A DNA stretch of 45,443 bases from Deltaproteobacteria bacterium (GCA_038041305.1 JBBTGV010000052.1:1-45443), one strand, 5' to 3'; numbered from the stretch's first letter, positions 778-15,086 are shown. Notes: generated by a model from the sequence alone, not told the origin. A program made the numbers and translations.

Positions 778-1023
778 TAGTAGATAATCTTTGTCCTTAT
801 GTTTTCGATATGCTCCTTTTTTAGTTTGTACGTCTCGGGTTTTATGGAAACCGGTGTGTCGCCTCGTTATCCCCAGTTCCCTCGCCACGTCGGTCTGAGA
901 ATCGATGAACGGGTATGAAAGGAGCCTTTCATACCTCTTTGCCTCGTGGATCGGGCACTCGCAGGTCTTTGGGGGTCTTACGGCTGGGCTTCCTCTGCCG
1001 GGGTGGAATAACTTTCGTCTGTT
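778..1023 (-). pseudogene. Remnant of a ParB-type HTH gene (paralog of 3297..3749)
   Basis: The minus-strand frame is open 778-1023 between stops but has no usable start. It translates ...VRPPKTCECPIHEAKRYERLLSYPFIDSQTDVARELGITR..., versus ...VRPPKTYECPIHEAKRYERLLNSQADVAKELGITR... in 3297..3749. Homology ends inside the HTH, so the recognition helix and C-terminus are missing. The listed 929..1234 minus ORF is in a different frame. Confidence 0.6.
861..999. repeat. Direct repeat copy A (ParB-HTH gene fragment)
   Basis: Hand alignment of 861-900 with 3428-3467 and of 919-999 with 3471-3551 gives about 109 of 119 identical positions. Copy A carries 18 nt (901-918) where copy B has 3 nt, an in-frame 15-nt difference. 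One run of 39 nt (919-957 vs 3471-3509) is identical. Confidence 0.8.
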
Positions 1024-1088
1024 TTAGTTTTGGAATCGGCAAGTTACAAAAGCAGGGGTAGAAAAGAAACACTATAGGGTATAAGGGT

Positions 1089-1117
1089 TTGTTTGTCCGT
1101 CCCTCTCTTGCTATAAT
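1089..1117 (+). promoter_or_regulatory. Possible sigma70 extended -10 promoter for the lipoprotein/M23 pair
   Basis: TTGTTT (1089-1094), 17-nt spacer, TGcTATAAT (-10 hexamer 1112-1117), about 45 nt upstream of ATG 1164. Sequence pattern only. Confidence 0.3.
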
Positions 1118-1163
1118 CGGAAACGGTTCAAAAGGAACCCAAGATTGGAGTCTGAAGCAGGGC

Positions 1164-2363
1164 ATGAAAAAGATATATAAAAATAGAATCGCTGCGGGAA
1201 TATTTTTTTCTTTCGTGGCTTTTTCTTTTTCCATTTACGGCTGTGCAGCCGGGAAACCGGCTTCTGTAACCACTCCCATAAAAATCAAGGGAGAAAAAGA
1301 GATACTCGTTGCGAGGGATATCGGCGGGGGATTGCCTTTTTCTCTCATTAGGTGGTGTGGAAATAACGCGCTTTTGATCTATGGTGGAGAATTCGGCACG
1401 CAGTGGGTGGACATAAAGGGGAACAAGGCAACTATAAGCACTAACAGCGCCGATTATCCCGTAGACTGCACACCTGACGGGAAATGGGTCTTATATGCGG
1501 ATAGGAATAGTGCGCGGGAATATAGGGATAAGGAGGGTCGCACTCCTGAGAATATCGTTGACGAAGGTCCCGGATGGCACGGGTCTGTGATGGATCTGTA
1601 TCGCTACGAAATAAAAACCGGCACGCGGCAGAAATTCGCGGTGGTGCGTGACGACAGCAGTGCCCTAATATCGCCTGACGGGTCGAAGGTATTGTTTGGA
1701 AACAGACATGATTGGGACATCGAGATGCCGGAGCCGAGATGGGAGCCCATGTGGCTTACTAACGAATGGACCTATTTCAATGCTCGCTGGCTTTCTGATT
1801 CTTCCGGCGTAGTAACGCTGGTATGGAATGCCAACGCCAGCCTCGGTGTGGAAATTTTCGGCAAAAATGGGTGGGCAAAGGAATTCAGTCTGGACATGAT
1901 CAGATCGGATCCGAGGGCCAATGTTTCCCTTGAAGCCGCGGATAAAAATAACGTCCTCCATTTTACGACTGTGGAGGATTATCCGGCAAGTAACCTTTCA
2001 AGGAGAATTTATAACTTCTTTAGTTGCAAGATAAAACAAAAGGATTTGATTTGCGGTTTGAGGGAGGGAATCGAAGAGGAAGAAGGCGATAACATTCTCT
2101 CCATCACGCTCCTGCCCAACGAAGATGTAATCTTCAAGAAAGAGGAGGATAACTGCGTACGCCGTGTAAAGCGCCGCAAGACCGTCGCCGAATGCATAGC
2201 TGATACACGGTATGGAGATGTCGTATATCTTGACATTGATTTGATAGAAATCTCCCCGGACGGGAGGTGGATGGCTTTCAGACGCGGAAAATTACCGCCA
2301 CAGGGCAACAGGTTTTACGCCTATCAATATGACCTATTTGTAATCGAAGTCGGAAACGATTAG
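1164..2363 (+). CDS. Lipoprotein with TolB/PD40-type beta-propeller repeats
   Basis: I chose ATG 1164; the tracked ORF begins at an upstream alternative codon at 1089. MKKIYKNRIAAGIFFSFVAFSFSIYG|C is a signal peptide plus lipobox. PD40-like signatures are TPDGKWVLYADRNS, SPDGSKVLFGNRH and SPDGRWMAFRRGK. Confidence 0.7.
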   Translation: MKKIYKNRIAAGIFFSFVAFSFSIYGCAAGKPASVTTPIKIKGEKEILVARDIGGGLPFSLIRWCGNNALLIYGGEFGTQWVDIKGNKATISTNSADYPVDCTPDGKWVLYADRNSAREYRDKEGRTPENIVDEGPGWHGSVMDLYRYEIKTGTRQKFAVVRDDSSALISPDGSKVLFGNRHDWDIEMPEPRWEPMWLTNEWTYFNARWLSDSSGVVTLVWNANASLGVEIFGKNGWAKEFSLDMIRSDPRANVSLEAADKNNVLHFTTVEDYPASNLSRRIYNFFSCKIKQKDLICGLREGIEEEEGDNILSITLLPNEDVIFKKEEDNCVRRVKRRKTVAECIADTRYGDVVYLDIDLIEISPDGRWMAFRRGKLPPQGNRFYAYQYDLFVIEVGND

Positions 2364-2375
2364 AGGGAGGGATCC

Positions 2376-3122
2376 GTGGGAGGGTTGAAAAGGACGATAG
2401 ATTTGAATTTCATGGAACCTGTTAATTATCCGAAAGGCGATAAATACGGGGACCGTAGCGGAACCCATTACGGAATTGATTACCTCGCCCCGCGCGGAAC
2501 GGCCGTTAAGGCGAGCGAAGACGGCGAGGTTGTAAGGGGGGCATTCAATTCAACTTATGGGCACCTCGTTATCATCAATCATACCCCAATGGCTAAAGAG
2601 AACCAACGGCATATCTACACGCTATACGCTCATCTTTCAGGAACGAACGTGAGCGGCGGGCAAGAGGTTAAGAAAGAAGAAACTATCGGTTATGTCAGCA
2701 ATACCGGTAAAACATACAGCACCACCGGTGGAGACGGGAGCCATCTTCATTTCGAAGTAATAGACACGGGAGAAAAAGGCGGAAAAATGAATTGGGGGAC
2801 ATTAGGCCCAACAAACTACGAAAAGCATGTGAATCGCGTAAATCCGATGAATTACTTTGGTCGTGTCACCACCATAGAATACCATTTGTCCGAAGAAGAG
2901 ATGAGGAAGATCGAGGGTAGTCTCGACATAGACCCCGTCATTGACTTTAAGCGCGGGATTTACCGCTTTGACCTGTATCTTGGTAAAAAGAAGGTCGGTT
3001 ACTTTGATAAGAGCCACAAGGAAGTCAGTGTGAAACTGTCTCCGGAGGAATTGGATGGAATTCTTAGAAATCCTTTTCCGCCAGGAAGGGATTCCAAGAA
3101 GATAGTAGAAATAAAAATCTAA
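2376..3122 (+). CDS. M23 (LytM-type) metallopeptidase without signal peptide
   Basis: HYGIDY (HxxxD) and SHLHFEV (HxH) are the zinc-ligand motifs, with GTAVKASEDGEVV and YAHLS also present. The GTG start lies 12 nt after the lipoprotein stop, behind GAGGGAGGGA. The N-terminus is hydrophilic with no signal peptide or TM segment seen. An unassigned C-terminal extension of about 110 aa follows. Confidence 0.85.
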   Translation: MGGLKRTIDLNFMEPVNYPKGDKYGDRSGTHYGIDYLAPRGTAVKASEDGEVVRGAFNSTYGHLVIINHTPMAKENQRHIYTLYAHLSGTNVSGGQEVKKEETIGYVSNTGKTYSTTGGDGSHLHFEVIDTGEKGGKMNWGTLGPTNYEKHVNRVNPMNYFGRVTTIEYHLSEEEMRKIEGSLDIDPVIDFKRGIYRFDLYLGKKKVGYFDKSHKEVSVKLSPEELDGILRNPFPPGRDSKKIVEIKI

Positions 3123-3296
3123 GCGGTTAAATATCCTAACATCTTAATCTGCTTCTCCCGCTTCCGATAAGGGTTATCGGCCTAAGGCTCCTTTCCGAGA
3201 CGGGTGGTATTTCATTAACCGACAGAGTGGAAAGGATGCGAGAGAAGCGACATTCTCTATCATCCTATTGAACTCCCTCTCCTGCCTTGCCGGTTC

Positions 3297-3749
3297 CTAT
3301 ATCATGAGAAGCGGCCTCAGGCGCCGCTCCGAGAAGTAGCGGATTGCCCTCTGGTCTTTAAGTCCCAAAAGCGTCCTCTGGATTTCATCGGGCAACTTCA
3401 GAAGCCCCATAATCTGGCTTACCCTTGCCCTCGTTATCCCGAGTTCCTTCGCAACGTCGGCCTGAGAGTTAAGGAGCCTTTCATACCTCTTTGCCTCGTG
3501 GATCGGGCATTCGTAGGTCTTTGGGGGTCTTACGGGCGGGTTTCCTATGCCTATGAACCGCTTCCGGTCCCTTTTCCCCTGGTAGATTTCGAACTCCTGC
3601 CACCATGTGCGGCTTTTGCAGTGCATGTCTGGCAACCGGAGCCAGACTTGACGCTCAGGCGAACACACGGCCTGGGCTGTTAACGCCTCATCGCTTGCGG
3701 TGGGGCGTTTTTTATTTAATCCAGCCTTTTTTCGCGAAAGCGACCTCAT
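3297..3749 (-). CDS. Small ParB/KorB-type helix-turn-helix DNA-binding protein (no ParB N-terminal CTPase domain)
   Basis: ADVAKELGITRARVSQIMGLLKLPDEIQRTLLGL...IRYFSERRLRPLL matches the ParB-family HTH pattern (GxSxxxVSxxxxLLxLP). It is homologous to 7113..7589 and to the remnant at 778-1023. The start is uncertain: a strong plus-strand terminator hairpin lies inside codons 12-23, so ATG 3626 (MHCKSR..., 109 aa) is an alternative. Confidence 0.6.
   Translation of the reverse strand: MRSLSRKKAGLNKKRPTASDEALTAQAVCSPERQVWLRLPDMHCKSRTWWQEFEIYQGKRDRKRFIGIGNPPVRPPKTYECPIHEAKRYERLLNSQADVAKELGITRARVSQIMGLLKLPDEIQRTLLGLKDQRAIRYFSERRLRPLLMI
3428..3551. repeat. Direct repeat copy B (inside ParB-HTH gene)
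   Basis: See copy A (861-999). Same orientation; the two copies bracket the lipoprotein-M23 pair. Confidence 0.8.
3682..3716 (+). terminator. Intrinsic-terminator-like hairpin on the plus strand
   Basis: AACGCCTCATCG-CTTG-CGGTGGGGCGTT forms a 12-bp stem (two G-U pairs) with a tetraloop, running into TTTTTTATTT. It has terminator form only when read on the plus strand. It sits 65 nt upstream of the higBA -35 element. Confidence 0.5.
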
Positions 3750-3780
3750 CCCAAAGAGCGCCCCGGTTGCATAACCCTCC

Positions 3781-3817
3781 TTGATTTATATAACATTAGG
3801 TGTTATAGTGTTATAAA
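3781..3817 (+). promoter_or_regulatory. higBA promoter with overlapping palindromic operator; near-leaderless
   Basis: TTGATT (3781-3786), 17 nt, TATAGT (3804-3809), then ATG at 3818 only 8 nt after the -10 hexamer with no Shine-Dalgarno sequence. There is an inverted repeat TATAACA-ttagg-TGTTATA (3789-3807) and a third TGTTATA half-site at 3809-3815. Confidence 0.55.
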
Positions 3818-4099
3818 ATGATTAAATCCTTTGCTGACGGGGAAACCGCCAATCTGTATCTCACGGGTAAAAGCAGAAAGTTTTCTTCGGCTGTTTGCAA
3901 AATAGGAATCAGGAAGCTGGATTATCTGAATGCGGCCGGAGCGCTCATGGATTTAAAGGTTCCGCCAGGCAACAGACTGGAGCAATTAAAAGGCGAGTAT
4001 AAAGGTAAATACAGCATCAGGATAAACGACCAATACAGAATTGTATTCAGATTCGTTGACTGCGACGCTTATGACGTGGAAATAACCGATTACCATTAA
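3818..4099 (+). CDS. higB: HigB-type (RelE/ParE superfamily) toxin, plasmid maintenance system killer protein
   Basis: 93 aa. The C-terminal YSIRINDQYRIVFRF...VEITDYH is typical of the HigB killer family. It lies immediately upstream of a HigA-type antitoxin in toxin-first order. Confidence 0.85.
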   Translation: MIKSFADGETANLYLTGKSRKFSSAVCKIGIRKLDYLNAAGALMDLKVPPGNRLEQLKGEYKGKYSIRINDQYRIVFRFVDCDAYDVEITDYH

Positions 4100-4111
4100 C
4101 GAGGAGACAAT

Positions 4112-4426
4112 ATGCATAACCTTAAAAGAGAGCCGACACACCCGGGGAAAATCTTGAATGAGGATTTTCTCAAGCCTTTAGGGCTATCCCAAAGCGCTCT
4201 TGCAAAAGAGATCAGCACGACCTTCAGGACTGTAAACGAGGTGGTAAACGAAAAAAGGAATATCAGCCCGGAGATGGCGATTAAACTATCGAGATATTTC
4301 GGGACATCCGTTGAGCTGTGGCTGAATCTTCAAAATCAATACGACGTCTACAGGATACGCATTAGAAAACCAGAGATGCTTGAACGCATAAAACCATACG
4401 CCAAATCGCACAAGAAAGTGGCGTGA
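4112..4426 (+). CDS. higA: HigA-family antitoxin (Xre-type HTH)
   Basis: HPGKILNEDFLKPLGLSQSALAKEISTTFRTVNEVVNEKRNISPEMAIKLSRYFGTSVELWLNLQNQYD is the canonical HigA antidote signature. A GAGGAG Shine-Dalgarno sequence is present and the start is 12 nt after the higB stop. Confidence 0.9.
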   Translation: MHNLKREPTHPGKILNEDFLKPLGLSQSALAKEISTTFRTVNEVVNEKRNISPEMAIKLSRYFGTSVELWLNLQNQYDVYRIRIRKPEMLERIKPYAKSHKKVA

Positions 4427-4607
4427 GGGGCGCGTTGCCGGAAGGAAGTAAAGGTGGGCCGTGCCCACCCTACGTGACTACTCATATTCATGCGGTTGTT
4501 GTTCCCCAAGCCGCCAATCGGGACAACTGGGAGAGGATGCTGATTCAACACCTTCAACCACCCATGAATCAGCAGTTCCGGTAAAGACCTTGTGAAAGGA
4601 ACGTTTA

Positions 4608-5360
4608 GTGTCTTTTTCCTCTAAAATAGAGTGGACTGAGGCAACATGGAACCCGATGACCGGATGTTCGAAGGTCAGCGATGGTTGCAGGAATTGCTAT
4701 GCCGAACGCCTCGCAAGGCGTTTAAAGGCAATGGGCAATCCTCGATATGAGAATGGTTTTGAGATTACTCTCCATCACGACCTTGTAGAAATGCCTCTGA
4801 GCTGGAAGACCCCGCGTATCATTTTCGTCAATTCCATGAGTGACCTGTTTCATGAAAGAGTGCCAGTATCGTTTATTAAGAGAGTCTTCGATGTCATGAC
4901 GAAAGCAGACTGGCATGTATTCCAGATTCTTACAAAACGCTCAAAAAGAATGGCTGAGATAGCTTTAAAGCTTTCTTGGCCTGAAAATGTCTGGATGGGC
5001 GTCACAGTCGAATCTCAGAAATATTGCCATCGCATTTCAGACCTTGAAAAAGTCCCTGCTCATGTGAGATTTCTCTCGATTGAACCGATGTTGTCCCCAA
5101 TCTCTCAACTTTCACTAAAAAATATCGACTGGGTTGTCGTGGGTGGAGAGTCCGGGCCCGGATGTAGAGCCATGAAAGCAGAATGGGCCCTCTCAATCAG
5201 GGCGGAGTGCAATGCCGCTCATGTGCCCTTCTTTTTCAAACAGTGGGGTGGTGTACGGAAAAAAAACAATGGAAGGCTCCTCGACGGCAAGACGTGGGAC
5301 GAGATGCCGGAAGCGCTGTCTTTAAGGTTAAAAGTATGTCCAAGTCTTTTACCTGCATAG
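4608..5360 (+). CDS. DUF5131 / phage Gp37-Gp68 family three-Cys-motif protein
   Basis: The N-terminus [30 protein letters not shown] carries the family hallmark (WNPxxGC...S.GC.NCYA; C-x6-C-x2-C). The start is GTG behind AAAGGA. A TcmP partner follows. Confidence 0.8.
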
Positions 5361-6253
5361 ATAACAATTGTCCAAGCAAGGACAACGACGATTACAATTG
5401 CGCCCATGCGAGTGGGGGAGATGGTGGGGTCGTCCAATGCGTTGATAAATGGGCTAACGATAAATTTTCCTATTTTGATAGATACCTTGGTGCCACAAGA
5501 AAGGCAAGAGCCAAGTATGTCAAGAATGGAAATGCGGTTTATATTGACCTCTTTTCGGGACCCGGCCAATGCCGCATTAAAAACATACAAGAAGAGATTC
5601 CCGGCGGAGCTCTCAGGGCATCCAAACTACAGGAGGCTCCTTTTAACAGAATTATCCTTAACGACCTATCGGCCAACAACGTCAAGGCTATAAAACAACG
5701 CATTAAGAATGCTGAAGTTCAGAATGGCGATGCGAATACTGTTGTGGATGCTATTGTTAAAGACCTCTTGTCGGCACAATACGACAAGCTACATTTCGTT
5801 TTCCTCGATCCCTTCTCCCCAGCAAATCTGAAGTTTCAAACGATCAAGAGTCTCGCCAGTTTGAAACGGGTAGATATCATGATTAATTTTCCTATTGGGC
5901 CGATACGTCGCAACTATAAAACGTGGCTTAAAAAAGACGGGACGATTCTTGATGAGTTTTTAGGGACGGCGGATTGGCGTCAGGCTGTTCAAGGGGTTTC
6001 GGAATCCGCCTTTTGTAATAATATGATTGATATTTATTACAGTCAGCTTAAGAAGATAGGTTTTCCTGAAGAAGGTCTTGGCATTATAGACGAAAAAGGG
6101 AATAGTTATCTTGGCGCAAACATAGCCGCTGTAAGGAATTCAAAGAATGTCCTCCTTTATTATCTGATACTTGCCTCAAAGCATAAGCTCGCCGCTAACA
6201 TTTGGCAGAGCATACTTAAAACTGATCCGAGTGGGCAGAAATATTTTTTTTAA
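5336..6253 (+). CDS. tcmP: Three-Cys-motif partner protein TcmP (TIGR04474-like), methyltransferase-fold-like
   Basis: I chose ATG 5336 (MSKSFTC...); the tracked start at 5183 lies deep inside the upstream gene. The gene overlaps the DUF5131 stop by 25 nt. [10 protein letters not shown] and VFLDPFSP motifs are present, and the protein sits in the partner position next to a Gp37/Gp68 protein. Confidence 0.7.
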
Positions 6254-6258
6254 ATCAA

Positions 6259-6915
6259 ATGAAACGACAGTCGCCTAAATACGACACATCAGGATTCATC
6301 GAGGCCCAGCACGAGCCGGGTTCCCGTGGGCAGGTTCTTAAAAACAAGCTCGGCATCAAAAGCAAACGGGAAATGGAGCGCATCGAATGGGAGGCGCAGA
6401 TAAAGGCCCTGTCCGAGATTGCAGGGAAGTATGGGAAGAAGCACCGATTCACGGCCAAGGACATCTGTAAAATCCATAAGGTCTGGCTCGGCGATATATA
6501 CGAATGGGCGGGCAAGTACCGGCAGGTCAATGTCAGTAAGGGAGACTTCCAGTTTGCGGCATCGGTCTACGTTCCCCGATTAATGGATGACCTCGAGAAA
6601 GGCCCGCTTAAGAAATTCACTCCCTGCAACTTCAAGGCAGTCGAAGAAACCGCGAAGGCCATTGCTACCGTTCATGTGGAGCTTGTGCTTATCCATCCAT
6701 TCAGGGAAGGAAACGGCAGGGTTGCCCGTCTTCTGGCCGACTTAATGGCTATGCAGGCCGATTATCCGCCCCTCGACTATTCGGATTTGGAAAAGGGTCA
6801 ATGGAAGAAATATATTGCGGCAATCCATGCAGGGCTGAGCAGGGACTATGAGCCTATGACGCGGCTTTTTACCGGCCTAATCGAGAAAGCCTCTTCGCTT
6901 CGGAAGGGGAAATAG
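6259..6915 (+). CDS. fic: Fic family protein (AMPylase/NMP-transferase type toxin), class I-like
   Basis: It carries the canonical Fic motif HPFREGNGRVARLL (HxFx[D/E]GNGRxxR). The overall layout is like E. coli Fic (KGDFQFAAS ... motif). I found no internal [S/T]xxxE[G/N] inhibitory motif. The start is 5 nt after the TcmP stop. Confidence 0.9.
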   Translation: MKRQSPKYDTSGFIEAQHEPGSRGQVLKNKLGIKSKREMERIEWEAQIKALSEIAGKYGKKHRFTAKDICKIHKVWLGDIYEWAGKYRQVNVSKGDFQFAASVYVPRLMDDLEKGPLKKFTPCNFKAVEETAKAIATVHVELVLIHPFREGNGRVARLLADLMAMQADYPPLDYSDLEKGQWKKYIAAIHAGLSRDYEPMTRLFTGLIEKASSLRKGK

Positions 6916-7072
6916 CACCGACCCGCTTTTCGTATTCCTCAAGGACATGCGTAGAGGCGATATGAACCCCCTCAACCGAGGTGGAGGACGTGACGGAAGT
7001 GATTATGCGCTCCCATCTTTCCTTAGGGTCTTTGAGGTAAGGATTAGTCTCAAGCAACGATTTATTTCCCAT
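6869..7072 (-). CDS. VbhA/FicA-like Fic-inhibitory antitoxin (67 aa)
   Basis: TSSTSVEGVHIASTHVLEEYEKRVG contains S-x3-E-G, the Fic-inhibitory motif. It resembles the VbhA-family pattern (S..(L/M)EG......... Y..G). The gene is convergent with fic and overlaps its 3' end by 47 nt. A consensus -10 hexamer lies directly upstream. Confidence 0.6.
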   Translation of the reverse strand: MGNKSLLETNPYLKDPKERWERIITSVTSSTSVEGVHIASTHVLEEYEKRVGAISPSEAKRLSRLGR

Positions 7073-7078
7073 ACAAAC

Positions 7079-7107
7079 ATTATACTACACAAGGCGGTTT
7101 GTTTGAA
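7079..7107 (-). promoter_or_regulatory. Promoter of the VbhA-like gene, predicts a leaderless mRNA
   Basis: Read on the minus strand: TTCAAA (7107-7102), 17 nt, TATAAT (7084-7079), 6 nt, ATG (7072). No Shine-Dalgarno sequence is present. Confidence 0.5.
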
Positions 7108-7112
7108 GCAGA

Positions 7113-7589
7113 TTATACCTTCATCTCAAACTCCTCCATAAGCTCGCCAATAACAGCCTGCCTTTCCATTGTCGACTCCAGTCCCGCAATCCGTAGCAGG
7201 GTCTTCCCTGAGAACCGCCTGATAATGTCATCGTCCTGACAATGCCTCATGTATTCCACGAAGTCATCGGGCAAGACATTGGCTATCTTCATCAACTGGG
7301 ATATCCTGGCCTTGGAGACCTTGAAGTGTTGGCTGGCGTGTCGGTAGGTTCTTTGTGGGTCTTCGGTTAGGAACGCCTTGACATTGAGGGCCTCGGCGAC
7401 GATGTTCTTTTGAATCGGCTTCGGAGGCAGTGGTCTGGCTGGCAAGGGCTCCCCTAAAACTATCTGGGTTTGCCTTCCCCTATATTTATACATCGCCACA
7501 AGTAGCTGTATTATTTGGGCTTTTTGAGTTCGTTTTCCGTCCAGTTCGGGGAGCCGCAGGCGCTCAATTGCAACTGGTAGCGCGTGCAC
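7113..7589 (-). CDS. ParB/KorB-type HTH DNA-binding protein, paralog of 3297..3749
   Basis: HFKVSKARISQLMKIANVLPDDFVEYM...IIRRFSGKTLLRIAGL aligns with LGITRARVSQIMGLLKLPDEIQRTL...AIRYFSERRLRPLL. GTG start. Confidence 0.6.
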   Translation of the reverse strand: MHALPVAIERLRLPELDGKRTQKAQIIQLLVAMYKYRGRQTQIVLGEPLPARPLPPKPIQKNIVAEALNVKAFLTEDPQRTYRHASQHFKVSKARISQLMKIANVLPDDFVEYMRHCQDDDIIRRFSGKTLLRIAGLESTMERQAVIGELMEEFEMKV

Positions 7590-7626
7590 CCCATTAAAAA
7601 ATGAATGCCCTTAGGCAATTGCGCAA

Positions 7627-7673
7627 GAAAAGGCAAGGGAGTCTGAAGCCCCGGCCCTTTTCTTGTTTTTTTT
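7627..7673. terminator. Weak hairpin plus T-run at the island / core boundary
   Basis: GAAAAGG (7627-7633) pairs with CCTTTTC (7656-7662), with an inner GGG/CCC pair, followed by TTGTTTTTTTT on the plus strand. On the minus strand it lies 30 nt downstream of the stop of 7703..9133, but the trailing T-run there is poor. Confidence 0.3.
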
Positions 7674-7702
7674 ACGATTATAAGGGGGAAATCCTGGCGG
7701 AT

Positions 7703-9133
7703 TTAGCTTACTGGCGCAAAGTCAAAAGTGTAGGTGATGGTGAAGGTCTCCACATCCTTAAGCCTTGAGAACTTCCATTTAAGTATTCTTGAAAGTATCG
7801 CGTCCCTTAATTCCTGGGAATCAAGCGTTGAGGAAACAAGATCGGCCGAGGCGACCTTGCCGTCCGCCGAGATCGTTATCTTTACGGTTATCTTTCCCTT
7901 AAGGAACGGATTGTCCCTTATCGCGTTGTTGTACAGGTATTTTAACCCGCCGACATAGCCCCTTATGGTCTTGTAGACCTCTGCCTCGTCCCGCATCCTT
8001 GATGAAACGGTCTGGCCCTTCTTGCCCGCCCTGCCGCCTTCAAGGTTTACGACGTCTTTCTTTTCCTTAAGTATCTCCTCCTTCATCTCGCCGGCGGTCT
8101 TTTTGGCGACCTGCGTGCCTCCCATGACCTCCTTTGAGATCTCCTCCATCTTTGAGAACTCTTCGGACCTGTATCTGCTCATCATCTCATCAGACTCAAG
8201 CCGGCCTTCCTCTGTCCTTACAAGCGGGCTTGAAATGCCGCGCACGTCCGCAAGCACATCAAGGCCCTTAAGCGCGTCGGGCATCCCCCTGCCGCCTATT
8301 ACGCTCAAAAGCCCCTTTGACATGACCTTTTTGCGTATCGCGGCCTTTTTCTCAACCGCCGCCTTTTCAACAGGCGCCTCCTCCTTTGCCGCTTCTTTCG
8401 GCTCTTCCGCGGGCGCCTCGGAAACCTTCTCCTCTGCGACAGGCGCCTCCTCTGCCTTTGGCTTCTCAACTTTTTTCGGCTTAGGAGGCTCTGTTATAAG
8501 CCGGGCAAACCTCGCGGGCATTTTTCTGAGCACCTCTATGTCATCCGTTTTCTTTATCTCAATCGTTGATAAAAGCCCCATAGCCACTATGGCTACGAAA
8601 GAAAGCGCAAGGCTAAGATAGTAAAAGGCGTAGTCTTCCTTTGGTATTAGTTTTTTCCTTAAGGACTTGTCAATCTTTTCATATTTTATCTTTGGCCTTT
8701 TTGCCTTTGGAAGGGATGCCTCCTTTGTCAGCTTGGCCGCGTCCGCGTAATTGAATGAAATGCTTAAGTTGCCGGAGGCAAGTACGAACGGCTGCTCGTG
8801 CGGAAGCTTAAGGAGATAGGAGGTATGCCCCTTGCCCGCCTTTTTTATAAGCCCAAGCTCAATAAGGCCGTTAACGGGAATGATCTCTTTGCCGACGGTT
8901 ATCGTTGCGTCAAGGTTTCCGGGTATTGTAAGGGCGTAATTTGTCCTGCCCCCGAAGGAAGAAAGCGAAATAACGGAAACGCCGGGCGCCAATGGGGTTA
9001 TGTCCGGTCCCTGCGGGGCCTTTCCTTTAAAGGCGCGGCCTAAGCCGGCCCGCCCGATTTCAGGTATGACCTCTTCAGTGGCGCCCAGGCCGTTGTCTAT
9101 AGTTGCAAAAAGGACTTTTTTGCTCTTATTCAC
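7703..9133 (-). CDS. TonB-like energy transducer with AgmX/PglI-type C-terminal domain (GltG/GltJ-like)
   Basis: The layout is a cytoplasmic N-domain, one TM segment (YAFYYLSLALSFVAIVAMGLLSTI), a Pro/Lys/Glu/Ala-rich linker (EPPKPKKVEKPKAEEAPVAEEKVSEAPAEEPKEAAKEEAP) and a C-terminal TonB_C-like fold. The C-terminal fold reads LYNNAIRDNPFLKGKITVKITISADGKVASADLVSSTLDSQELRDAILSRILKWKF. The gene overlaps the upstream ExbD gene by 8 nt. Confidence 0.7.
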   Translation of the reverse strand: MNKSKKVLFATIDNGLGATEEVIPEIGRAGLGRAFKGKAPQGPDITPLAPGVSVISLSSFGGRTNYALTIPGNLDATITVGKEIIPVNGLIELGLIKKAGKGHTSYLLKLPHEQPFVLASGNLSISFNYADAAKLTKEASLPKAKRPKIKYEKIDKSLRKKLIPKEDYAFYYLSLALSFVAIVAMGLLSTIEIKKTDDIEVLRKMPARFARLITEPPKPKKVEKPKAEEAPVAEEKVSEAPAEEPKEAAKEEAPVEKAAVEKKAAIRKKVMSKGLLSVIGGRGMPDALKGLDVLADVRGISSPLVRTEEGRLESDEMMSRYRSEEFSKMEEISKEVMGGTQVAKKTAGEMKEEILKEKKDVVNLEGGRAGKKGQTVSSRMRDEAEVYKTIRGYVGGLKYLYNNAIRDNPFLKGKITVKITISADGKVASADLVSSTLDSQELRDAILSRILKWKFSRLKDVETFTITYTFDFAPVS

Positions 9134-9617
9134 TGGATATCACTGCCAGAGATATTCCGTTGTATCCGGCCTGCCCGCATGTGTACATCACCTTTTTGAG
9201 AAGGGCAAACGGGATGCTCTTGTCGCCCTGAACAATTACCTCTCCGCTGAACTTAATATTGGGGTTGTTCTGGGCAATGAAGGCAAGCCTTTCCGTATTT
9301 TTATTGAGCGCTTCAAGAAGCGGCGCTATCACATACTCGGTCTTTTTAATCTCGTCTTCAACCACCGCCACCGCCTCCCCTTCCGCGATTATGTCGTTTG
9401 TTGAGATCTGTATTATAAACCTCTGTTTCGGGGTCTGCGTTGATATTGACACGGGCAGCCGAAGGCTCTTGTCAACGGTCATTATCTCGCCTTCCGACGA
9501 GAAGCTCTTAAGAAGGAATAGAAGTATGATGGTAAACATGTCCATCATGGAGGTCAGCGTGAGCGCGGCCTCTACGTGTCTGGATTTCCTGTCTTTTGTC
9601 CTTGACCTTACCGCCAT
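9126..9617 (-). CDS. ExbD/TolR family biopolymer transport protein
   Basis: The N-terminus ...RHVEAALTLTSMMDMFTIILLFLL is the typical ExbD/TolR anchor. Its size and operon context with a MotA/ExbB channel also fit. Confidence 0.85.
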   Translation of the reverse strand: MAVRSRTKDRKSRHVEAALTLTSMMDMFTIILLFLLKSFSSEGEIMTVDKSLRLPVSISTQTPKQRFIIQISTNDIIAEGEAVAVVEDEIKKTEYVIAPLLEALNKNTERLAFIAQNNPNIKFSGEVIVQGDKSIPFALLKKVMYTCGQAGYNGISLAVISSE

Positions 9618-9676
9618 TATTCAACCTTTCAGCGTCCCGAAACCCTTTGGTTAAAAACCTTCCAACGCGCCTCAGG

Positions 9677-10168
9677 CTATTCGTTTTCTCCGAGGGATAC
9701 CGCGGGGAACAGAAACCTTCTTTTCCTTACCTCGTCCTTTAAAACAGTCGTTTCCCTTGCCGCGTCCATGACCTTTACGACAAGATCGTAGGCGGTCTCC
9801 TGATCAAAAAGCAGTATCACCTCTTCCTGCGATGGGTATCTGTCCTTTAACCTCACAAGCTCTTCGGTTAAACCGTTGAAGTCGTATTTATCGTCCTTTA
9901 AAGGCACCTTTATGCCCGGACCGAGGCCGCCCAGCTCAAAGCCGCTTTTTGTAACCTTTATCGCAAGGAGTTTTTGTTCGGATGAGCCGCCCCCGCCTCC
10001 CCCCTGCGCCTCCTGCGGAAGATAGATGTCTATGACGGCTGTCTTTACAAAGACCGCGGTCAGCAGAAGAAATGGGATAATGATTATAAAAATATTCATT
10101 ATGGGGGTAAGGTTTAAATCCCCCTCCTCTGCCCTGTGATGACTTCTTTTGCTCGGCCTGTATGCCAT
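9677..10168 (-). CDS. ExbD/TolR family biopolymer transport protein (second copy)
   Basis: EEGDLNLTPIMNIFIIIIPFLLL anchor motif. It lies downstream of the ExbB-like gene. Confidence 0.85.
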   Translation of the reverse strand: MAYRPSKRSHHRAEEGDLNLTPIMNIFIIIIPFLLLTAVFVKTAVIDIYLPQEAQGGGGGGSSEQKLLAIKVTKSGFELGGLGPGIKVPLKDDKYDFNGLTEELVRLKDRYPSQEEVILLFDQETAYDLVVKVMDAARETTVLKDEVRKRRFLFPAVSLGENE

Positions 10169-10218
10169 AAAAAGCCTCTATGAAAAGTAGTTATGCCCCT
10201 GAGAAGGAAATCCGGGGC

Positions 10219-10953
10219 CTATTCCTCTGTCGGGTGCTGCGCGGGCTTGTGTTTTGGCGGCTCTTTGTGTTCTTTTGGGTGTTCTTTTGGCGGCTCTGGC
10301 AGGGCAGGCTCGTGCCTTTGCCTGAGGAGTTCCTTCTTTTTTGCGATGAGATTAATGAGCTTTACCGAGAACTCGTCAATCTCGTCCGTAATCTTATGCG
10401 CCCTCGCCGTAAGGAGCGAGTACATTATCAGCAAGGGGATCGCAACGATAAGGCCGAAGGCCGTCGTATAGAGCGCGACGGAGATGCCTTTTGCGAGAAG
10501 CTCGGCCTTCTGCGACGGCTCAGCGCTGCCGACCGCCGAGAACGCCTGAATAAGCCCCTGTATCGTGCCGAGCAGGCCCAGCAGGGTCGCTATGTTAGCG
10601 AGGGTCGCCAAGTAGCTTATCCTCTTGTCTATTGAAGGCATGACCTCAAGCACCGCCTCGTCTATCGCGTTCTGCACCGCCTTTTCATCGCCCCTTGCGG
10701 CCGATATGCCGTTATGCAGGATCTTAAGAAGCGGGATACGGAGGTCCTTGCACTGGCCCGCCGCCTGCTCCATGTGGCCGTCCTCTATGGAACGGCTTAT
10801 CCTGTCCCACAGGGCGTGCGCGTCCACGTTAAAATTAAAGAGCAGGAGTTTCGTCCGTTCAATCAGTATCGCAAGCCCGATAACCCCTGAAGCGAGTATC
10901 GCGTACATGAATATTCCGCCGTCAAAGAAGAATGAGGCTAAAGATTGAAGCAT
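10219..10953 (-). CDS. MotA/TolQ/ExbB proton-channel family protein
   Basis: Three TM segments with the conserved C-terminal half ATLLGLLGTIQGLIQAF ... ISVALYTTAFGLIVAIPLLIMY. An AAGGAGG Shine-Dalgarno sequence is present. The C-terminal tail is unusual and Pro/Lys/His-rich (PKEHPKEHKEPPKHKP). Confidence 0.9.
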   Translation of the reverse strand: MLQSLASFFFDGGIFMYAILASGVIGLAILIERTKLLLFNFNVDAHALWDRISRSIEDGHMEQAAGQCKDLRIPLLKILHNGISAARGDEKAVQNAIDEAVLEVMPSIDKRISYLATLANIATLLGLLGTIQGLIQAFSAVGSAEPSQKAELLAKGISVALYTTAFGLIVAIPLLIMYSLLTARAHKITDEIDEFSVKLINLIAKKKELLRQRHEPALPEPPKEHPKEHKEPPKHKPAQHPTEE

Positions 10954-11002
10954 TTTCGTCTACCTCCTTGGATCATTGGTTAAAGTGAAAGGTTTTTTTG
11001 TT

Positions 11003-11272
11003 CTATCTCGCGTCGTATGCCGGATAAACAGGCTTAAGTATATCCTGCAAAAAGCTCTTTTTCAAAAACTCGTCCCTCCAGAGCCTTGCCCTCGGCACAA
11101 TGAATATCACGCGCGGCTTTTCTATCGTGCCTTCTATTTTTATCACGCGCTCAATAATCTCCTGAGGCGTTTGATCGGCCCCGGGAGGGTGCGCGCCGTT
11201 GAACATGTCGCCGGAATCAACCGCGCTCAGAAGCACCGATAATGCAAAAAGGGCAGGGACGAGCCGTTTCAT
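11003..11272 (-). CDS. Small secreted protein (89 aa), unknown function
   Basis: Signal peptide MKRLVPALFALSVLLSAVDS. It has a 4-nt overlap with the upstream TPR gene. It occupies the position of a small exported protein between the TPR genes and the motor genes. Confidence 0.55.
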   Translation of the reverse strand: MKRLVPALFALSVLLSAVDSGDMFNGAHPPGADQTPQEIIERVIKIEGTIEKPRVIFIVPRARLWRDEFLKKSFLQDILKPVYPAYDAR

Positions 11273-12255
11273 TTAAGCCTCCCCTTTGCCTCAATCCTTG
11301 AGGATACGACGTCTATCCATGCCTTAAGCTCGTCCGAGCCCGGGCCTCCTTTTGCAAAGGCGAGCAGGTAGTTTGCAATGGCGTTGTCAAGGTCCTCAAG
11401 ATACAGTTCGTATATTATGCCCATATTTTTATACACCGTTGCGTCGTTGGGGTCAAGTATTGAGGCATCCCTGTATGCGGCAAGCGCGGCCTCGTAGTTG
11501 TAAAGCTTAAGAAGCGTCTGCGCCTTGCCTGTAAGTATCCGCGGGTCTTTTTTGTCGGCCTCGTAAGCCGCATTGAAATATTTCAGCGCCTCCTGAAATT
11601 CGGCGTATTTATATAGAAAGACCCCCATGCTGTAGTTTATCTCAGGCTCCGTTGGAGACAGGCCTTCAAGCATTTTAAAGTATTTGAACGCCTCTTGCCT
11701 GTTATTGAGCCTCTGGTGTATTCCCGCAAGGTTCAGCAGCGTCGTCTTGCCCTTTTCATGCTCAAGGGCCAGCTTGAGGTTGTCCGCCGCGCTTGAATCC
11801 CTGCCCTTCAGCATCTGGACGGCGCCGATTGCGCCGTAGACCTTGTCCTTTGGGCCGTTATTTTTGAGCGCGGAGTAAAACTGCTGCTCCGCCCTCTCAA
11901 AGTCCTTGTGCTTAAGGTATATGATCCCGGCGTTATAGTGCGCGTCCCACCTCGCGGGGTCAATTGACAGTATCTTTTCGTATATAAGGAGAGAGGCCGC
12001 CGGGTTTGCCTCCATGTGTCCGAGCGCCTTTTGAAGGTACCCGTTTATGGCATCGTCCGTTGAGGGGGCGTCCGGTTTTTGTTCCTGTTTCTGCGCCTCC
12101 CTTGCCTTTTCCTTAAGCCGCATCCCCCTTGCCATGGCGTCAAGCTCGGCAACCTCCGGGACGATGGCGCTGCCCTTTATCGTAATGGGCCTTTGCGGCG
12201 CGGCGCAGCCTGCGATGAACGCGGCCATAATAAGCGCCAATCCAAAGATCCTCAT
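11269..12255 (-). CDS. TPR-repeat lipoprotein (GltE/AglT-like by architecture)
   Basis: Lipobox MRIFGLALIMAAFIAG|C. Multiple TPR units are present (WDAHYNAGIIYLKHKDFERAEQQFYSAL, YSMGVFLYKYAEFQEALKYFNAAY and others). Confidence 0.7.
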   Translation of the reverse strand: MRIFGLALIMAAFIAGCAAPQRPITIKGSAIVPEVAELDAMARGMRLKEKAREAQKQEQKPDAPSTDDAINGYLQKALGHMEANPAASLLIYEKILSIDPARWDAHYNAGIIYLKHKDFERAEQQFYSALKNNGPKDKVYGAIGAVQMLKGRDSSAADNLKLALEHEKGKTTLLNLAGIHQRLNNRQEAFKYFKMLEGLSPTEPEINYSMGVFLYKYAEFQEALKYFNAAYEADKKDPRILTGKAQTLLKLYNYEAALAAYRDASILDPNDATVYKNMGIIYELYLEDLDNAIANYLLAFAKGGPGSDELKAWIDVVSSRIEAKGRLK

Positions 12256-15086
12256 CTCGCGCCTCCCTTGGCAATTGCCGGGGACGCCGGGTCCGGGTAT
12301 AAAAACGCGGGGTCAAGGCCCTGCTCCGCGAATGCCCTTCTGTATATGGCCGGTTTAAGGGTCTTAAGGCGCTCAAAGCATTTTTCAACCCATTCGTTCT
12401 GAACCATGAGCTTTACGCCGGCCCTAAAGCAGTTCCCGTATGCGGACAACGCCTGTTCGTCGTACTGGATGGCCTTTTCTTCAAGGAGGAAGTTGTATTC
12501 CTCAAGCTCCTCTGCATTTAAATCACCAGGCCTTTCCGACGACAGTATGGAATCCTTGAAGTTCTCAAGGGCGAGTCCCATCGGTGAAAAGACCTCCGGG
12601 TAGATCTCTGGCATCTTGTAGGCAAGGACCTGCGAGTAGTTTTTTACAAGGCTGTTAAGGAGGTCCGCCTTTTTCTTGATCGTCTCCTCAAAAGGCTGGC
12701 TGAGCTTCAGCTTGAGGAACGCGTCAAGGCCTTCCTCAAGGATCTTAAGCCTTGCCCTGGCGAGATGGAGGTTTCTTATTTCCGCCTTCTCTTCAACGAG
12801 CGTTCTTAGGGTCAGCCGTCCGTCGTCAATATTTCCGAGCTTAATCTGCACGAGGCCGAGCTTGTATCTTGCCTCTATTTCCATTGCCTCGGACAGGGGC
12901 ACTATGGAAAGATATTTTTTCAGGGCCTCTGCCGCCTTTTCATATTCAGAGGCCTTTTCATACAGATTGGAGGCCAGAAAGACGAGCCTTGCGGAGTCCT
13001 CTGACGCGCCGAACACCGTGGAGGCGTTTTCATATATGGAGGCCGCCTTTGACGGGAATGCATTTTCAATGGACCTTGCCGCTTCAATAAGGAAAGAGGC
13101 CGAGGTCTTTGAGGCGGGATAGGTCTTTATGATGCGCTTTACGGCGGCCTCAAGGGCGTCCGTGTCCCCGGTCTGCATGTATATCCTCCCAATCTGCAGA
13201 AGCGAGACCTCGGCCACGGACGAGGTCGGATTGGTTGAGAATGTCTCGTCAAACTTCCGTGCGGCCTTTTCAAAACTGCCTGCCTTAAGAAGGTCCTCCG
13301 CCATCCTGTATCTCACAGCGAGGAGTTTTTCCTTTGCCTCCGGATCAGAGGCCGGTATACCCTTATAGACATCCTCCGCGTCCTGAAGCCTGCCCTCCGC
13401 GATAAAGGTCTCCGCGATTTTTTTATTGGCCTTTGAGGCGTCCCTTCCCTTGACGAGCTCCTTAAGCCTCTGTCTCGCGGCATCGTAGTCTTTTATGTCG
13501 CTGTATATGTCGGCCAGCTTGTACACGGCCCTTTCAAACGCGCCGTGGGACGCGATATCGTTTTTGTAGCGCTGGAAGAGACCGTCGGCCTCCTTTGACA
13601 CCGCTGCCTTGTCCTCCGTATTTTCATAGAAAAGGAATTCATAGCTTAAAAAGGCCGAGTACGCGATCTTCCCCCTTTCCGCGCCATCGGGGAAGAGGGC
13701 CGCCGCCTCAGAGAACTCCTTTGCGGCCCCGGCGTAGCCCTTCGCGTCCCAGAGGGCCTGCGCAAGGTGGAGTTTAACCTCTTTGTATTCCTCTGCCTTC
13801 GGATAAGCCTGCAGGAGCAGCGAATACCCTTCTATGGCCTGATTAAGCTCCCTTTCACCGCCGGGCTTTTTGCCGGCGAGGTGGAGCTTCCTGAAGAGGT
13901 CAAGCATCGTCTCCTTCAGCATCTCGTCAAGCTCAACCGCCCCGTTAGGGTGGTTTTTTCTGTACCAGCGCGTAGTGGGGTTTGTGAGATAGGCCAGCTT
14001 AAGCCTTGTGGTTATCTCGGATTTTTCATCCCCGGTCCTTTCATACAGGTCGGCCAGGTCGTTCAGTATGAACGCAAGCTCCGGCCTTTCGGGAAAGAGC
14101 TCCGTATAGTAGGTGAAAACGATTATGGCATCCGCAAACCGGGTCTGTTCCGCAAACAGCTCGCCGAGCCTTTTTAATACAAGCGGCATGTAATCCCGTT
14201 TGCCCCTGCCCTGAAAGTGCTTTAACGCGAGGTGCGGGGTTGAATACCTCGCGAGGGTCATGACAATGCCCGCAAGGCCTTCCTCTGTGAGGGCGTCGGC
14301 CTTGGGGTTGCCCTCCCAGTTCATGTCAACTATCTCCATGAAGTAATCAAGGGCCTTTTCATAGTCGCTTGACTTGTAATACACCCAGCCGAGCTTGTAT
14401 ATGACCTTTTCATAGAATGGAGAGGCGGGGTGCGGCATGATCTTCTGGTAGGCGGCCATCGCCTCCGCGGTCTCACCTGTCTCAAAGTAGAATTCTCCGA
14501 GCCTGAAATAGACCTCAAGCGCGTACTGGCTCTCGGGATAGTTTTTCAGAAGCTCCTCAAACACGCCGACCGCCTCGTCAATCAAGCCCTGTTCCGAAAG
14601 GGCATAGCCGAGGGTATAGTAAAGGGCGTCGGCGTTCTTATCGTAGGAGAAAAGCTTTATTAGTTCGCTGAAGTGGGCTATGAGCTTTGAGTAGTCCTCT
14701 TCCGGCGGCGCGGGCGAGGCGGGCAGAGACCCCTTGTTAAAGAGGGCCAAGTCCCTCTCGTATGCGTCCATGAGCGATTTGAACTGCACATCCTTCGCCG
14801 CGAGGTATTCTTCCGTTGACCTCAGCACGAGGTCAACGGATAAGTTGTTGTAGTTTGTCTTATCCATGTAATCTTCCCACTTGTGCACCATCACATCGTC
14901 GGGCTGAGCGGCCTTCGGCCTCGCCGGCTCAATTGCCTTGGGCATCGGCGCCTCCTTTACCTGAACCGTCGTAGCCGCGCACGCGGGCAGGAATATAAGC
15001 AGGAGAAGCAGCAATGACAGGCGGCGTAAAGGGCGCTTCGCCCTTAGGCGCATGTCCGCCGGTTTCGCGTGCGTCGGGTCTTTCAC
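12252..15086 (-). CDS. Large TPR-repeat envelope protein (GltD/AgmU-like by architecture)
   Basis: 944 aa with TPR units along the whole length. The N-terminus LSLLLLLLIFLPAC is signal-peptide/lipobox-like. GTG 15086 gives a 4-nt overlap with the upstream gene; ATG 15053 is an alternative start. Confidence 0.7.
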   Translation of the reverse strand: MKDPTHAKPADMRLRAKRPLRRLSLLLLLLIFLPACAATTVQVKEAPMPKAIEPARPKAAQPDDVMVHKWEDYMDKTNYNNLSVDLVLRSTEEYLAAKDVQFKSLMDAYERDLALFNKGSLPASPAPPEEDYSKLIAHFSELIKLFSYDKNADALYYTLGYALSEQGLIDEAVGVFEELLKNYPESQYALEVYFRLGEFYFETGETAEAMAAYQKIMPHPASPFYEKVIYKLGWVYYKSSDYEKALDYFMEIVDMNWEGNPKADALTEEGLAGIVMTLARYSTPHLALKHFQGRGKRDYMPLVLKRLGELFAEQTRFADAIIVFTYYTELFPERPELAFILNDLADLYERTGDEKSEITTRLKLAYLTNPTTRWYRKNHPNGAVELDEMLKETMLDLFRKLHLAGKKPGGERELNQAIEGYSLLLQAYPKAEEYKEVKLHLAQALWDAKGYAGAAKEFSEAAALFPDGAERGKIAYSAFLSYEFLFYENTEDKAAVSKEADGLFQRYKNDIASHGAFERAVYKLADIYSDIKDYDAARQRLKELVKGRDASKANKKIAETFIAEGRLQDAEDVYKGIPASDPEAKEKLLAVRYRMAEDLLKAGSFEKAARKFDETFSTNPTSSVAEVSLLQIGRIYMQTGDTDALEAAVKRIIKTYPASKTSASFLIEAARSIENAFPSKAASIYENASTVFGASEDSARLVFLASNLYEKASEYEKAAEALKKYLSIVPLSEAMEIEARYKLGLVQIKLGNIDDGRLTLRTLVEEKAEIRNLHLARARLKILEEGLDAFLKLKLSQPFEETIKKKADLLNSLVKNYSQVLAYKMPEIYPEVFSPMGLALENFKDSILSSERPGDLNAEELEEYNFLLEEKAIQYDEQALSAYGNCFRAGVKLMVQNEWVEKCFERLKTLKPAIYRRAFAEQGLDPAFLYPDPASPAIAKGGAR

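Follow-up and report, generated by a model that had tools for sequence, protein, structure and literature searches.

Modules of the FicTA type, as they have been described, carry the gene for the antitoxin immediately upstream of the toxin gene and on the same strand (PMC13327609; PMC8401265). Their FicT toxins have topoisomerases as targets and are inhibited by small proteins with an inhibitory helix, alpha-inh (PMC8401265; PMC13327609). The pair of DUF5131 and TcmP genes is already on record as the PADLOC candidate PDC-M41/M30, and RadicalSAM.org assigns DUF5131 to Megacluster-5-2, next to the spore photoproduct lyase (SPL) group 5-3 (PMC9477430). A neighbourhood of Hna and TcmP on pSymA of S. 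meliloti has been mentioned (PMC12445080); in the papers searched, neither functional work on DUF5131 or TcmP nor a validation of the candidate PDC-M41 turned up. Here we describe a locus at positions 4608–7107 of a 45,443-nt stretch of DNA from a Deltaproteobacteria bacterium (GCA_038041305.1, JBBTGV010000052.1:1-45443; the whole stretch is called the window below), in which genes for DUF5131, TcmP and a Fic protein follow each other on the plus strand and face a convergent open reading frame (ORF) for a protein of 67 aa. A preliminary description had rightly taken DUF5131 and TcmP for a recognised pair and proposed that Fic and its inhibitor extend this pair into one conflict system. We consider it probable (about 0.7) that the locus instead unites two independent modules, the DUF5131-TcmP pair and a mobile class I FicTA cassette, which now form one transcription unit in this lineage. 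The locus has the following elements:

4608–5360, plus strand: DUF5131 (Gp37/Gp68) three-Cys protein, GTG start, 250 aa, predicted partial TIM barrel resembling radical S-adenosylmethionine (SAM) enzymes, PF07505
5336–6253, plus strand: TcmP, three-Cys-motif partner protein, ATG start at 5336, 305 aa, predicted class I SAM-methyltransferase fold, TIGR04474
6259–6915, plus strand: class I Fic protein, predicted FicT-like AMP transferase, 218 aa, PF02661, PADLOC PDC-S04
6869–7072, minus strand: convergent ORF, putative trans-acting alpha-inh antitoxin, 67 aa, with S30-T-S-V-E34-G35
6869–6915: 3'-3' overlap of fic and the small ORF, 47 nt
7079–7107, minus strand: promoter-like site of the small ORF, TTCAAA-17-TATAAT, the -10 box ending 6 nt before the ATG

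The preliminary description had the four ORFs, their motifs and their overlaps exactly right, and its assignment of the three larger proteins agrees with profile matches to PF07505, TIGR04474 and PF02661 that all lie above the cutoffs.

As we picture it, the first module (4608–6253) would be the widespread DUF5131-TcmP pair, translationally coupled by its conserved 25-nt overlap and combining a three-Cys radical-SAM-like enzyme with a partner of SAM-methyltransferase fold that resembles RlmJ and Trm1. The second module (6259–7107) would be a FicTA cassette in which Fic, with its predicted AMP-transferase site, is the toxin, and in which the 67-aa antitoxin supplies the inhibitory helix in trans, E34 blocking the productive binding of ATP. 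The antitoxin gene would be transcribed from its own -10 promoter into a leaderless mRNA, convergently with fic. Upon depletion of the antitoxin, Fic may AMPylate a cellular target and thereby arrest growth; by analogy with FicT toxins, this target could be GyrB/ParE (PMC8401265; PMC13327609). The cassette would have inserted 5 nt after the TcmP gene and brought no promoter region along, which makes read-through from the first module the probable source of fic expression. We infer the enzymatic activities, the neutralisation of the toxin, the co-transcription and any role in defence, whereas the comparisons below directly show to which families the proteins belong, how the genes are arranged, that the small ORF and the position of its promoter are conserved, and that the two modules occur independently of each other across loci.

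Neighbourhoods of the pair and of the Fic cassette

The two modules were separated by reciprocal surveys of gene neighbourhoods. Among 80 genomic loci with TcmP, about 50 had an adjacent DUF5131 gene and none a free-standing Fic gene; a Fic domain was present in one (L018, fused to a large methyltransferase) and a MazE-Doc module in another (L072). When DUF5131 and 31 TcmP queries were sought within 5 kb of fic in 80 further metagenome loci, with Fic proteins 47–61% identical to that of the window, neither DUF5131 nor TcmP was found in any of them. On the same strand, the downstream neighbour of the DUF5131-TcmP pair was a Fic gene in none of 46 cases, and the only families that recurred at this position were SPL/Radical_SAM (three) and PNP_UDP_1 (two). 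The closest relatives of the two modules gave the same picture. L093 and L096 have no Fic and carry an unrelated convergent gene after DUF5131-TcmP. In L179 (Fic 85% identical), the small ORF is kept and fic follows a 339-aa protein that is not TcmP and, by a look at its sequence alone, is probably SIR2-like. The small ORF is also kept in L003 and L004 (Fic 76%), beside DUF1828/1829 and HsdR, and in L007–L012 (Fic 66–68% by alignment), where the cassette is located inside type I restriction-modification loci, with hsdS/hsdR in L010–L012. Nucleotide homology of the window to these other contexts covers only about 6267–7091, i.e. fic, the small ORF and approximately 20 nt upstream of the small ORF. 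Judging by these comparisons, Fic and the 67-aa ORF are a self-contained, promiscuous and horizontally mobile cassette.

The full arrangement of DUF5131, TcmP and Fic was found only in the lineage of the window, i.e. in its close relatives L001 and L181, where the physical linkage of the genes is genuine. Since neither survey brought the modules together and each module is missing beside the nearest relatives of the other, we interpret the locus as two modules and not as one conserved system; it is, in terms of gene order and homology, an ordinary lineage-specific juxtaposition of a PDC-M41-type pair and a FicTA cassette. The extension of the pair by Fic and its inhibitor, as originally proposed, thus found no counterpart either around the 80 Fic genes or in the next position behind the 46 pairs. 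The base composition also differs along the locus. The locus has a GC content of 46.7%, compared to 50.5% in the window, and the lower value is owed to TcmP (42.6%), so that the AT-richer DNA noted in the preliminary description is a modest effect that does not include fic (52.2%). The jump from 42.6% to 52.2% at the junction of TcmP and fic fits different origins of the two modules.

A comparison with the sister contig L001 indicates how the modules may be connected in this lineage. DUF5131, Fic and the small ORF of L001 are 91%, 94% and 97% identical to their counterparts in the window, whereas its TcmP (7183–8004) is only 28% identical to that of the window (5336–6253), and the nucleotide homology between the two contigs breaks exactly at the stop codon of DUF5131 and at the ATG of fic. 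TcmP therefore looks like an exchangeable cassette beside a conserved DUF5131 that was swapped precisely at the gene boundaries. Between the TAA of TcmP and the ATG of fic there is a gap of 5 nt in the window and an overlap of 4 nt in L001. Because fic abuts two TcmP genes with only 28% identity and the homology breaks at its ATG, a conserved internal promoter is unlikely, which makes read-through from the DUF5131 promoter the simplest reading; in this lineage, fic is probably co-transcribed with DUF5131-TcmP.

Several observations weigh against two independent modules of the proposed kinds. The reciprocal surveys comprised at most 80 loci each, mostly metagenome-assembled contigs and many of them short. 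Fic-fold genes occurred near TcmP three times independently (in the lineage of the window, in L018 and in L072), which is a raw count. The triple was retained in the lineage despite the precise exchange of TcmP, and an exchange by flanking homology would imply that further DUF5131-TcmP-Fic cassettes exist and hence that some selective linkage may exist. With respect to the individual proteins, the similarity of DUF5131 to SPL is weak by E-value (0.012), no sequence similarity of the small ORF to any characterised FicA antitoxin was detected, and the residue after the equivalent of E34 is G in 53 of 77 homologues and T, L, S or D in the other 24, compared to G or N in the published motif.

Part of these observations would suit the original idea that DUF5131, TcmP, Fic and the small inhibitor are one integrated conflict system, with an AMPylating effector under the control of a pair that modifies or senses nucleic acids. 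The operon-like packing, with its 25-nt overlap and 5-nt gap, was correctly described, the arrangement is kept in L001 and L181, the TcmP gene was exchanged while DUF5131 and Fic on either side of it stayed conserved, and Fic-fold genes are present near TcmP in L018 and L072. Nevertheless, a co-occurrence of 0/80 and 1–2/80 in the reciprocal surveys, with Fic as the next gene in 0/46 cases, the nearest relatives of each module that lack the other, the difference in GC content between the modules and the same tight spacing of fic behind many unrelated genes make one integrated system very unlikely in our view.

The Fic protein and the convergent small gene

The Fic protein matches PF02661 with 70.9 bits (cutoff 24, E=1.6e-19) and, over its full length, the hidden Markov model (HMM) PDLC04839 of PADLOC PDC-S04 (E=4e-76). 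The signature HxFx(D/E)GNGRxxR is present as HPFREGNGRVAR at residues 146–157, and a regular-expression search of the 218 aa detected no internal [S/T]xxxE[G/N]. Among its relatives in the PDB are two class I toxins, VbhT (1e-15) and E. coli Fic/EcFicT (4e-13). By these features it is a class I Fic protein, a predicted AMP transferase without an inhibitory helix of its own.

The convergent ORF is, by its pattern of conservation, a genuine conserved gene and not a chance ORF. Homologues convergent with fic are present in 75 of the 78 loci that were testable because they contain enough downstream sequence. Between pairs of homologues, the first, second and third codon positions differ by 0.42, 0.34 and 0.67, respectively, and this third-position excess indicates a coding frame. 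Conservation is highest in the first 36 residues (consensus L-x2-TNPYL-x-DP ... V-x-SS-[ST]-A-[IV]-E-G), while the tail that overlaps fic is variable, and all 77 sequences compared share N10, S30 and E34; the Fic-inhibitory S-x3-E-G motif to which the preliminary description had drawn attention thus has its Ser and Glu in each of these homologues. A profile search yielded 938 cluster representatives with E<=1e-3 among 1.84 billion, nearly all of them 47–153 aa long, and the only name on record for this family is 'hypothetical protein'. Automated gene calls missed the small ORF in L001 and L010, and in L007–L009 a 70-aa ORF on the fic strand was called instead, so that the family is probably unannotated because gene callers skip the small ORF or take the opposite strand.

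Searches for relatives of known function were unproductive. The 67-aa ORF had no match in Pfam, NCBIfam, PADLOC, PHROGs or PDB, with PDB being searched with the single sequence and with the profile up to E<=10, and no antitoxin family was retrieved either with the family consensus in Pfam (E<=10) or with the members singly in Pfam and NCBIfam. Weak matches to DUF4172 (E=0.004) and Fic_N (E=0.03) were obtained with 2 of 51 members each; both families presumably correspond to the N-terminal part of class II Fic proteins, in which the inhibitory helix is located. In consequence, we do not assign the small protein to a family beyond its motif. The term 'VbhA-like' in the preliminary description remains apt as a functional analogy, but it has no equivalent in a detectable sequence relation to VbhA, YhfG or any antitoxin family, and the gene order is different from that of every FicTA module described. 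We regard the 67-aa protein as a putative trans-acting antitoxin that would neutralise Fic.

In L002 (4234–7320), a copy of the small ORF with 87% identity is retained although fic is broken, with residues 3–79 and 202–218 split by approximately 2.6 kb that contain DUF3800 and other ORFs; this constellation is most simply read as an orphan antitoxin beside a decayed or remodelled toxin. It also bears on the question whether the complex of Fic and the small protein could be a regulatory AMPylase/deAMPylase pair that acts on an endogenous target, and not a toxin-antitoxin (TA) addiction or defence module. A class I Fic-1-AntF complex was reported to be a GyrB deAMPylase (PMC13327609), and the inhibitory Glu is needed for deAMPylation in other Fic classes (PMC8401265). 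In contrast, loss of fic with retention of the small ORF is what would be expected for a decaying toxin, the cassette is mobile and patchily distributed, occurring in islets that also contain restriction-modification and TA genes, and PADLOC lists this Fic subfamily as a defence candidate. A purely regulatory pair therefore appears quite improbable to us.

The small gene apparently has its own promoter and a leaderless mRNA. The site TTCAAA-17-TATAAT in front of the small ORF is the best promoter match in 3200–7800 (10 of 12 positions), and a -10-like hexamer ends 3–12 nt before the start of the small ORF in 55 of 73 loci, mostly at a distance of 5–7 nt, compared to 6 loci expected from shuffles. 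A -10 box in such close vicinity of the ATG implies that the mRNA is leaderless and transcribed towards fic, and a scan found no intrinsic terminator that would separate the two genes. A strong promoter that faces fic without a terminator in between, together with a 3'-3' overlap (median 38 nt) that is found in 72 of 77 loci, would also be compatible with an element that acts mainly as RNA, by antisense pairing or transcriptional interference over the overlap, with the peptide being secondary. However, the conservation is located in the 36 N-terminal codons outside the overlap, with their third-position excess and the invariant N10, S30 and E34, conservation is lowest in the tail that overlaps fic, and five loci have no overlap between the two genes. 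An action mainly at the RNA level is thus highly improbable, and the small gene is better understood as the antitoxin gene of the cassette.

Upstream of the cassette, the homology of fic to other loci starts at the ATG or within approximately 20 nt of it. A same-strand ORF ends at most 30 nt before the start of fic in 28 of 79 loci, and the tight upstream neighbours form 27 clusters among 31. They include N6_Mtase (2), N6_N4_Mtase (2), Methylase_S and HsdM_N, i.e. HsdM, HsdS and Mod, besides a histidine kinase, ankyrin, NYN, Bro-N, PDDEXK, HTH and other proteins. Two generalisations were rejected: a cassette that as a rule lacks a promoter, because the gap upstream of fic exceeds 100 nt in about half of the loci, and a conserved third gene upstream of fic, because of the diversity of the neighbours.

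PrrC with EcoprrI provides a precedent for a toxin that guards a modification system. In analogy, the Fic cassette could lodge behind genes for methyltransferases or specificity subunits (HsdM, HsdS, Mod, PglX-like, TcmP) as a portable, promoter-less effector, a second line that is released when a phage attacks the upstream modification complex. Synthesis of the toxin would be slaved to the host operon, the leaderless antitoxin would set the threshold, and the repeated association with TcmP would reflect functional coupling. The location of the cassette in or beside type I restriction-modification loci (L003, L007–L012; Hsd genes in 10 of 36 Fic loci of at least 5 kb), the methyltransferase and specificity genes among its direct upstream neighbours, the fusion of a Fic domain to a PglX/Alw26I-like methyltransferase in L018 and the predicted methyltransferase fold of TcmP are in line with such a role. 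On the other hand, most of the tight upstream neighbours are not methyltransferases, many loci have gaps above 100 nt, the inhibitor of the cassette suffices for a stand-alone TA module, and a contact between the proteins is conjecture. We consider a guard function unlikely and favour a FicTA cassette that is independent of its upstream genes.

The DUF5131-TcmP pair and its surroundings

The DUF5131 protein matches PF07505 with E=7e-103 and 343.7 bits (cutoff 28.9), residues 5–234 covering profile positions 2–243 of 243, and PADLOC PDC-M41B/M30B with E-values around 1e-117 (M41B 1.9e-117). The score with TIGR04471 was 77 bits, under the cutoff of 355. Of the N-terminal three-Cys motif, 27 homologues all have C20 and C27, and at least 90% of them have C30. 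Because sequence searches against the PDB gave no meaningful match for DUF5131 or TcmP, both were modelled with AlphaFold2 and compared by fold. For DUF5131, the model (pLDDT 85.7) shows a partial TIM barrel, and SPL gave the highest TM-score (TMq 0.51, prob 1.00, E=0.012). These data suggest that DUF5131 is a radical-SAM-like protein of the SPL clade, for which binding of an Fe-S cluster and cleavage of SAM can be predicted. DUF5131 by itself bears a phage name (Gp37/Gp68).

TcmP matches TIGR04474 with 135.1 bits (cutoff 53) and PADLOC PDC-M41A with E=7.7e-18, so that both component HMMs of M41 (A and B) match adjacent genes. An in-frame ATG exists at 5183, yet the homologues begin at the position of MSKSF, i.e. 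at ATG 5336. Residues 1–22 (5336–5400) are a clade-specific N-terminal extension with spaced cysteines (C6, C11 and C21) and low model confidence (pLDDT 41–57), which distant TcmP proteins lack. The motifs D71-L-F-x-G75-x-G77 and D158-P (D-P-F) are invariant, and the model (pLDDT 88.7) shows the fold of a class I methyltransferase. The best match in the fold search was RlmJ, a 23S rRNA m6A methyltransferase (E=7e-6, TMq 0.43–0.46), and aTrm11 and RumA matched as well.

The partnership of the two proteins is kept in L093, L094 and L096 (TcmP 65–70% identity), where DUF5131 overlaps TcmP by the same 25 nt. In the closest TcmP clade of the genome survey (L013–L028, 42–47% identity), most loci pair TcmP with a three-Cys radical SAM protein of about 255 aa that carries GCSHGCKYPCYA, whereas L026 has DUF5131 as partner. 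The approximately 255-aa partner in L018 (6896–7663), the only member that was scanned, matches PA0069, Rv2578c and rSAM_mob_pairB. In the same locus, a 1507-aa PglX/Alw26I-like adenine methyltransferase with a C-terminal Fic domain of the mobile mystery protein B type (1002–5525) is located directly upstream of the TcmP-radical SAM pair. L072 (21–8212) has TcmP-DUF5131 between a large methyltransferase-like ORF with an NPPY motif and a 1138-aa ORF, and DUF5131 is directly followed by a MazE-like antitoxin (4022–4273) and a Doc toxin (4277–4681, HPFIDGNKR). L097 and L098 contain TcmP, DUF5131 and a further gene for a 256-aa protein without NCBIfam match.

TcmP was found on 16 plasmids, and tblastn detected it in none of 50,697 phage records, which makes it less likely that the pair is a phage-borne anti-restriction function. 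One of the plasmids, p79s2p of Burkholderia glumae (L182, NZ_CP100265.1 95443-106195), carries a Gp37/Gp68 gene flanked by two TcmP genes, with a 499-aa radical SAM protein and a dTMP kinase nearby, all of them adjoining a cassette of imuA, Y-family polymerase and error-prone polymerase genes. One metagenomic TcmP locus has neighbours of the DnaE2/ImuB type. L182 and the ImuB/DnaE2 neighbours hint at a connection of the TcmP pair to DNA damage. In view of the additional SPL-like radical SAM, ImuB and DnaE2 neighbours, we limit our interpretation to a pair for SAM-dependent modification or processing of nucleic acids; this two-enzyme activity may function in defence or in DNA repair.

The elements that surround the four genes are:

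4478–4607, plus strand: probable promoter and 5' untranslated region of the DUF5131 operon, a conserved region
7113–7589, minus strand: 158-aa ORF containing a ParB-HTH-like segment, on the strand of the small ORF and 40 nt upstream of it
3818–4426: HigB (PF05015) and HigA (TIGR02607), by family profile matches
3297–3749, minus strand: 150-aa HTH_ParB ORF, by its HTH_ParB match

The nucleotide homology to L001 upstream of the DUF5131 GTG (91%) begins at 4478, approximately 130 nt before the start codon; a simple promoter scan of 4478–4607 gave no strong sigma-70 match. The preliminary description was correct in naming higBA as neighbour. With ordinary chromosomal genes on its flanks (M23 peptidase, ExbB/ExbD/TPR genes, phosphoglucomutase), the locus is an accessory islet of about 4.3 kb rather than a large defence island. 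On the minus strand, 7703–16942 encode a 476-aa Pro/Lys/Glu-rich protein without Pfam match, two ExbD proteins, ExbB/MotA and large TPR proteins, and this chromosomal cluster indicates that the islet is embedded in ordinary chromosomal DNA. The islet lies between the ORFs at 3297–3749 and 7113–7589, which both contain a ParB-HTH-like segment and, with 28% identity (E=4e-6), are distantly paralogous. Only the former matches HTH_ParB, whereas the 158-aa ORF has no family match. The 158-aa ORF is kept in L181 and in L001, where the 55 aa that are available show 75% identity, and the homology of the window with L179 and L003 ends at about 7090, short of this ORF. Its linkage is, to judge from these four contigs, confined to the present lineage, and it is located outside the mobile Fic cassette.

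Relation to known systems

As a four-gene conflict system, the locus is not worth pursuing, since it joins, in this lineage, two candidates that are catalogued separately. The individual modules offer more. PDC-S04, which is listed as a single-gene system, has a hidden conserved partner, and cloning without this partner may result in toxicity or artefacts. The new element is a family of convergent, overlapping and apparently leaderless antitoxin-like genes, an arrangement that is undescribed for FicTA. The repeated placement of the cassette inside restriction-modification operons is a testable hint of a coupling between toxin and operon, and the exchangeable TcmP as well as the pairing of an SPL-clade with an RlmJ-like protein provide concrete starting points for a widespread, uncharacterised family.

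Among the described enzymes, DUF5131 is closest to SPL, as indicated by the RadicalSAM.org grouping and the top TM-score, and three downstream neighbours of the DUF5131-TcmP pair match the Pfam family SPL. A link to the SPL/PA0069/Rv2578c clade is also provided by the alternative partner in the closest TcmP clade, with its matches to PA0069, Rv2578c and rSAM_mob_pairB. However, the Cys motif of DUF5131 is C-x6-C-x2-C instead of the canonical C-x3-C-x2-C, the protein has about 250 aa compared to 340 in SPL, and the Foldseek E-value is 0.012. TcmP shares with RlmJ, Trm1 and Trm11 the predicted class I methyltransferase fold, weak matches to the TRM1 family and the invariant D-L-F-x-G-x-G and D-P-F motifs, but with identities of 11–12%, a TM-score of about 0.45 and scores under the cutoffs of those families. 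Compared with PDC-M41/PDC-M30 of PADLOC, there is no essential difference: both proteins match the A and B models in adjacent genes, and the pair with its 25-nt overlap is kept in relatives, so that the window contains an ordinary member to which a FicTA cassette was joined downstream.

The Fic protein of the window matches the HMM of PDC-S04 from end to end. The difference is that PADLOC treats PDC-S04 as a single gene, whereas a conserved partner gene, often missed by gene callers, accompanies it in the window as well as in 75 of 78 related loci. With the FicTA modules VbhT/VbhA, EcFicT/YhfG, Fic-1/AntF and Bep/BiaA, the cassette has in common a class I Fic protein with HxFx(D/E)GNGRxxR and without an internal inhibitory helix, a toxin related in sequence to VbhT and EcFicT, and a small adjacent protein with S-x3-E-G. 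It differs from them in that the antitoxin gene is located downstream, is convergent with fic, overlaps its 3' end and has a promoter of its own and an apparently leaderless mRNA, in that the small protein shows no detectable similarity to VbhA, YhfG or the antitoxin families of Pfam and NCBIfam, and in that the residue after the Glu is neither G nor N in 24 of 77 homologues. On these grounds, we infer that the Fic cassette is an architectural variant of class I FicTA with an unclassified antitoxin family.

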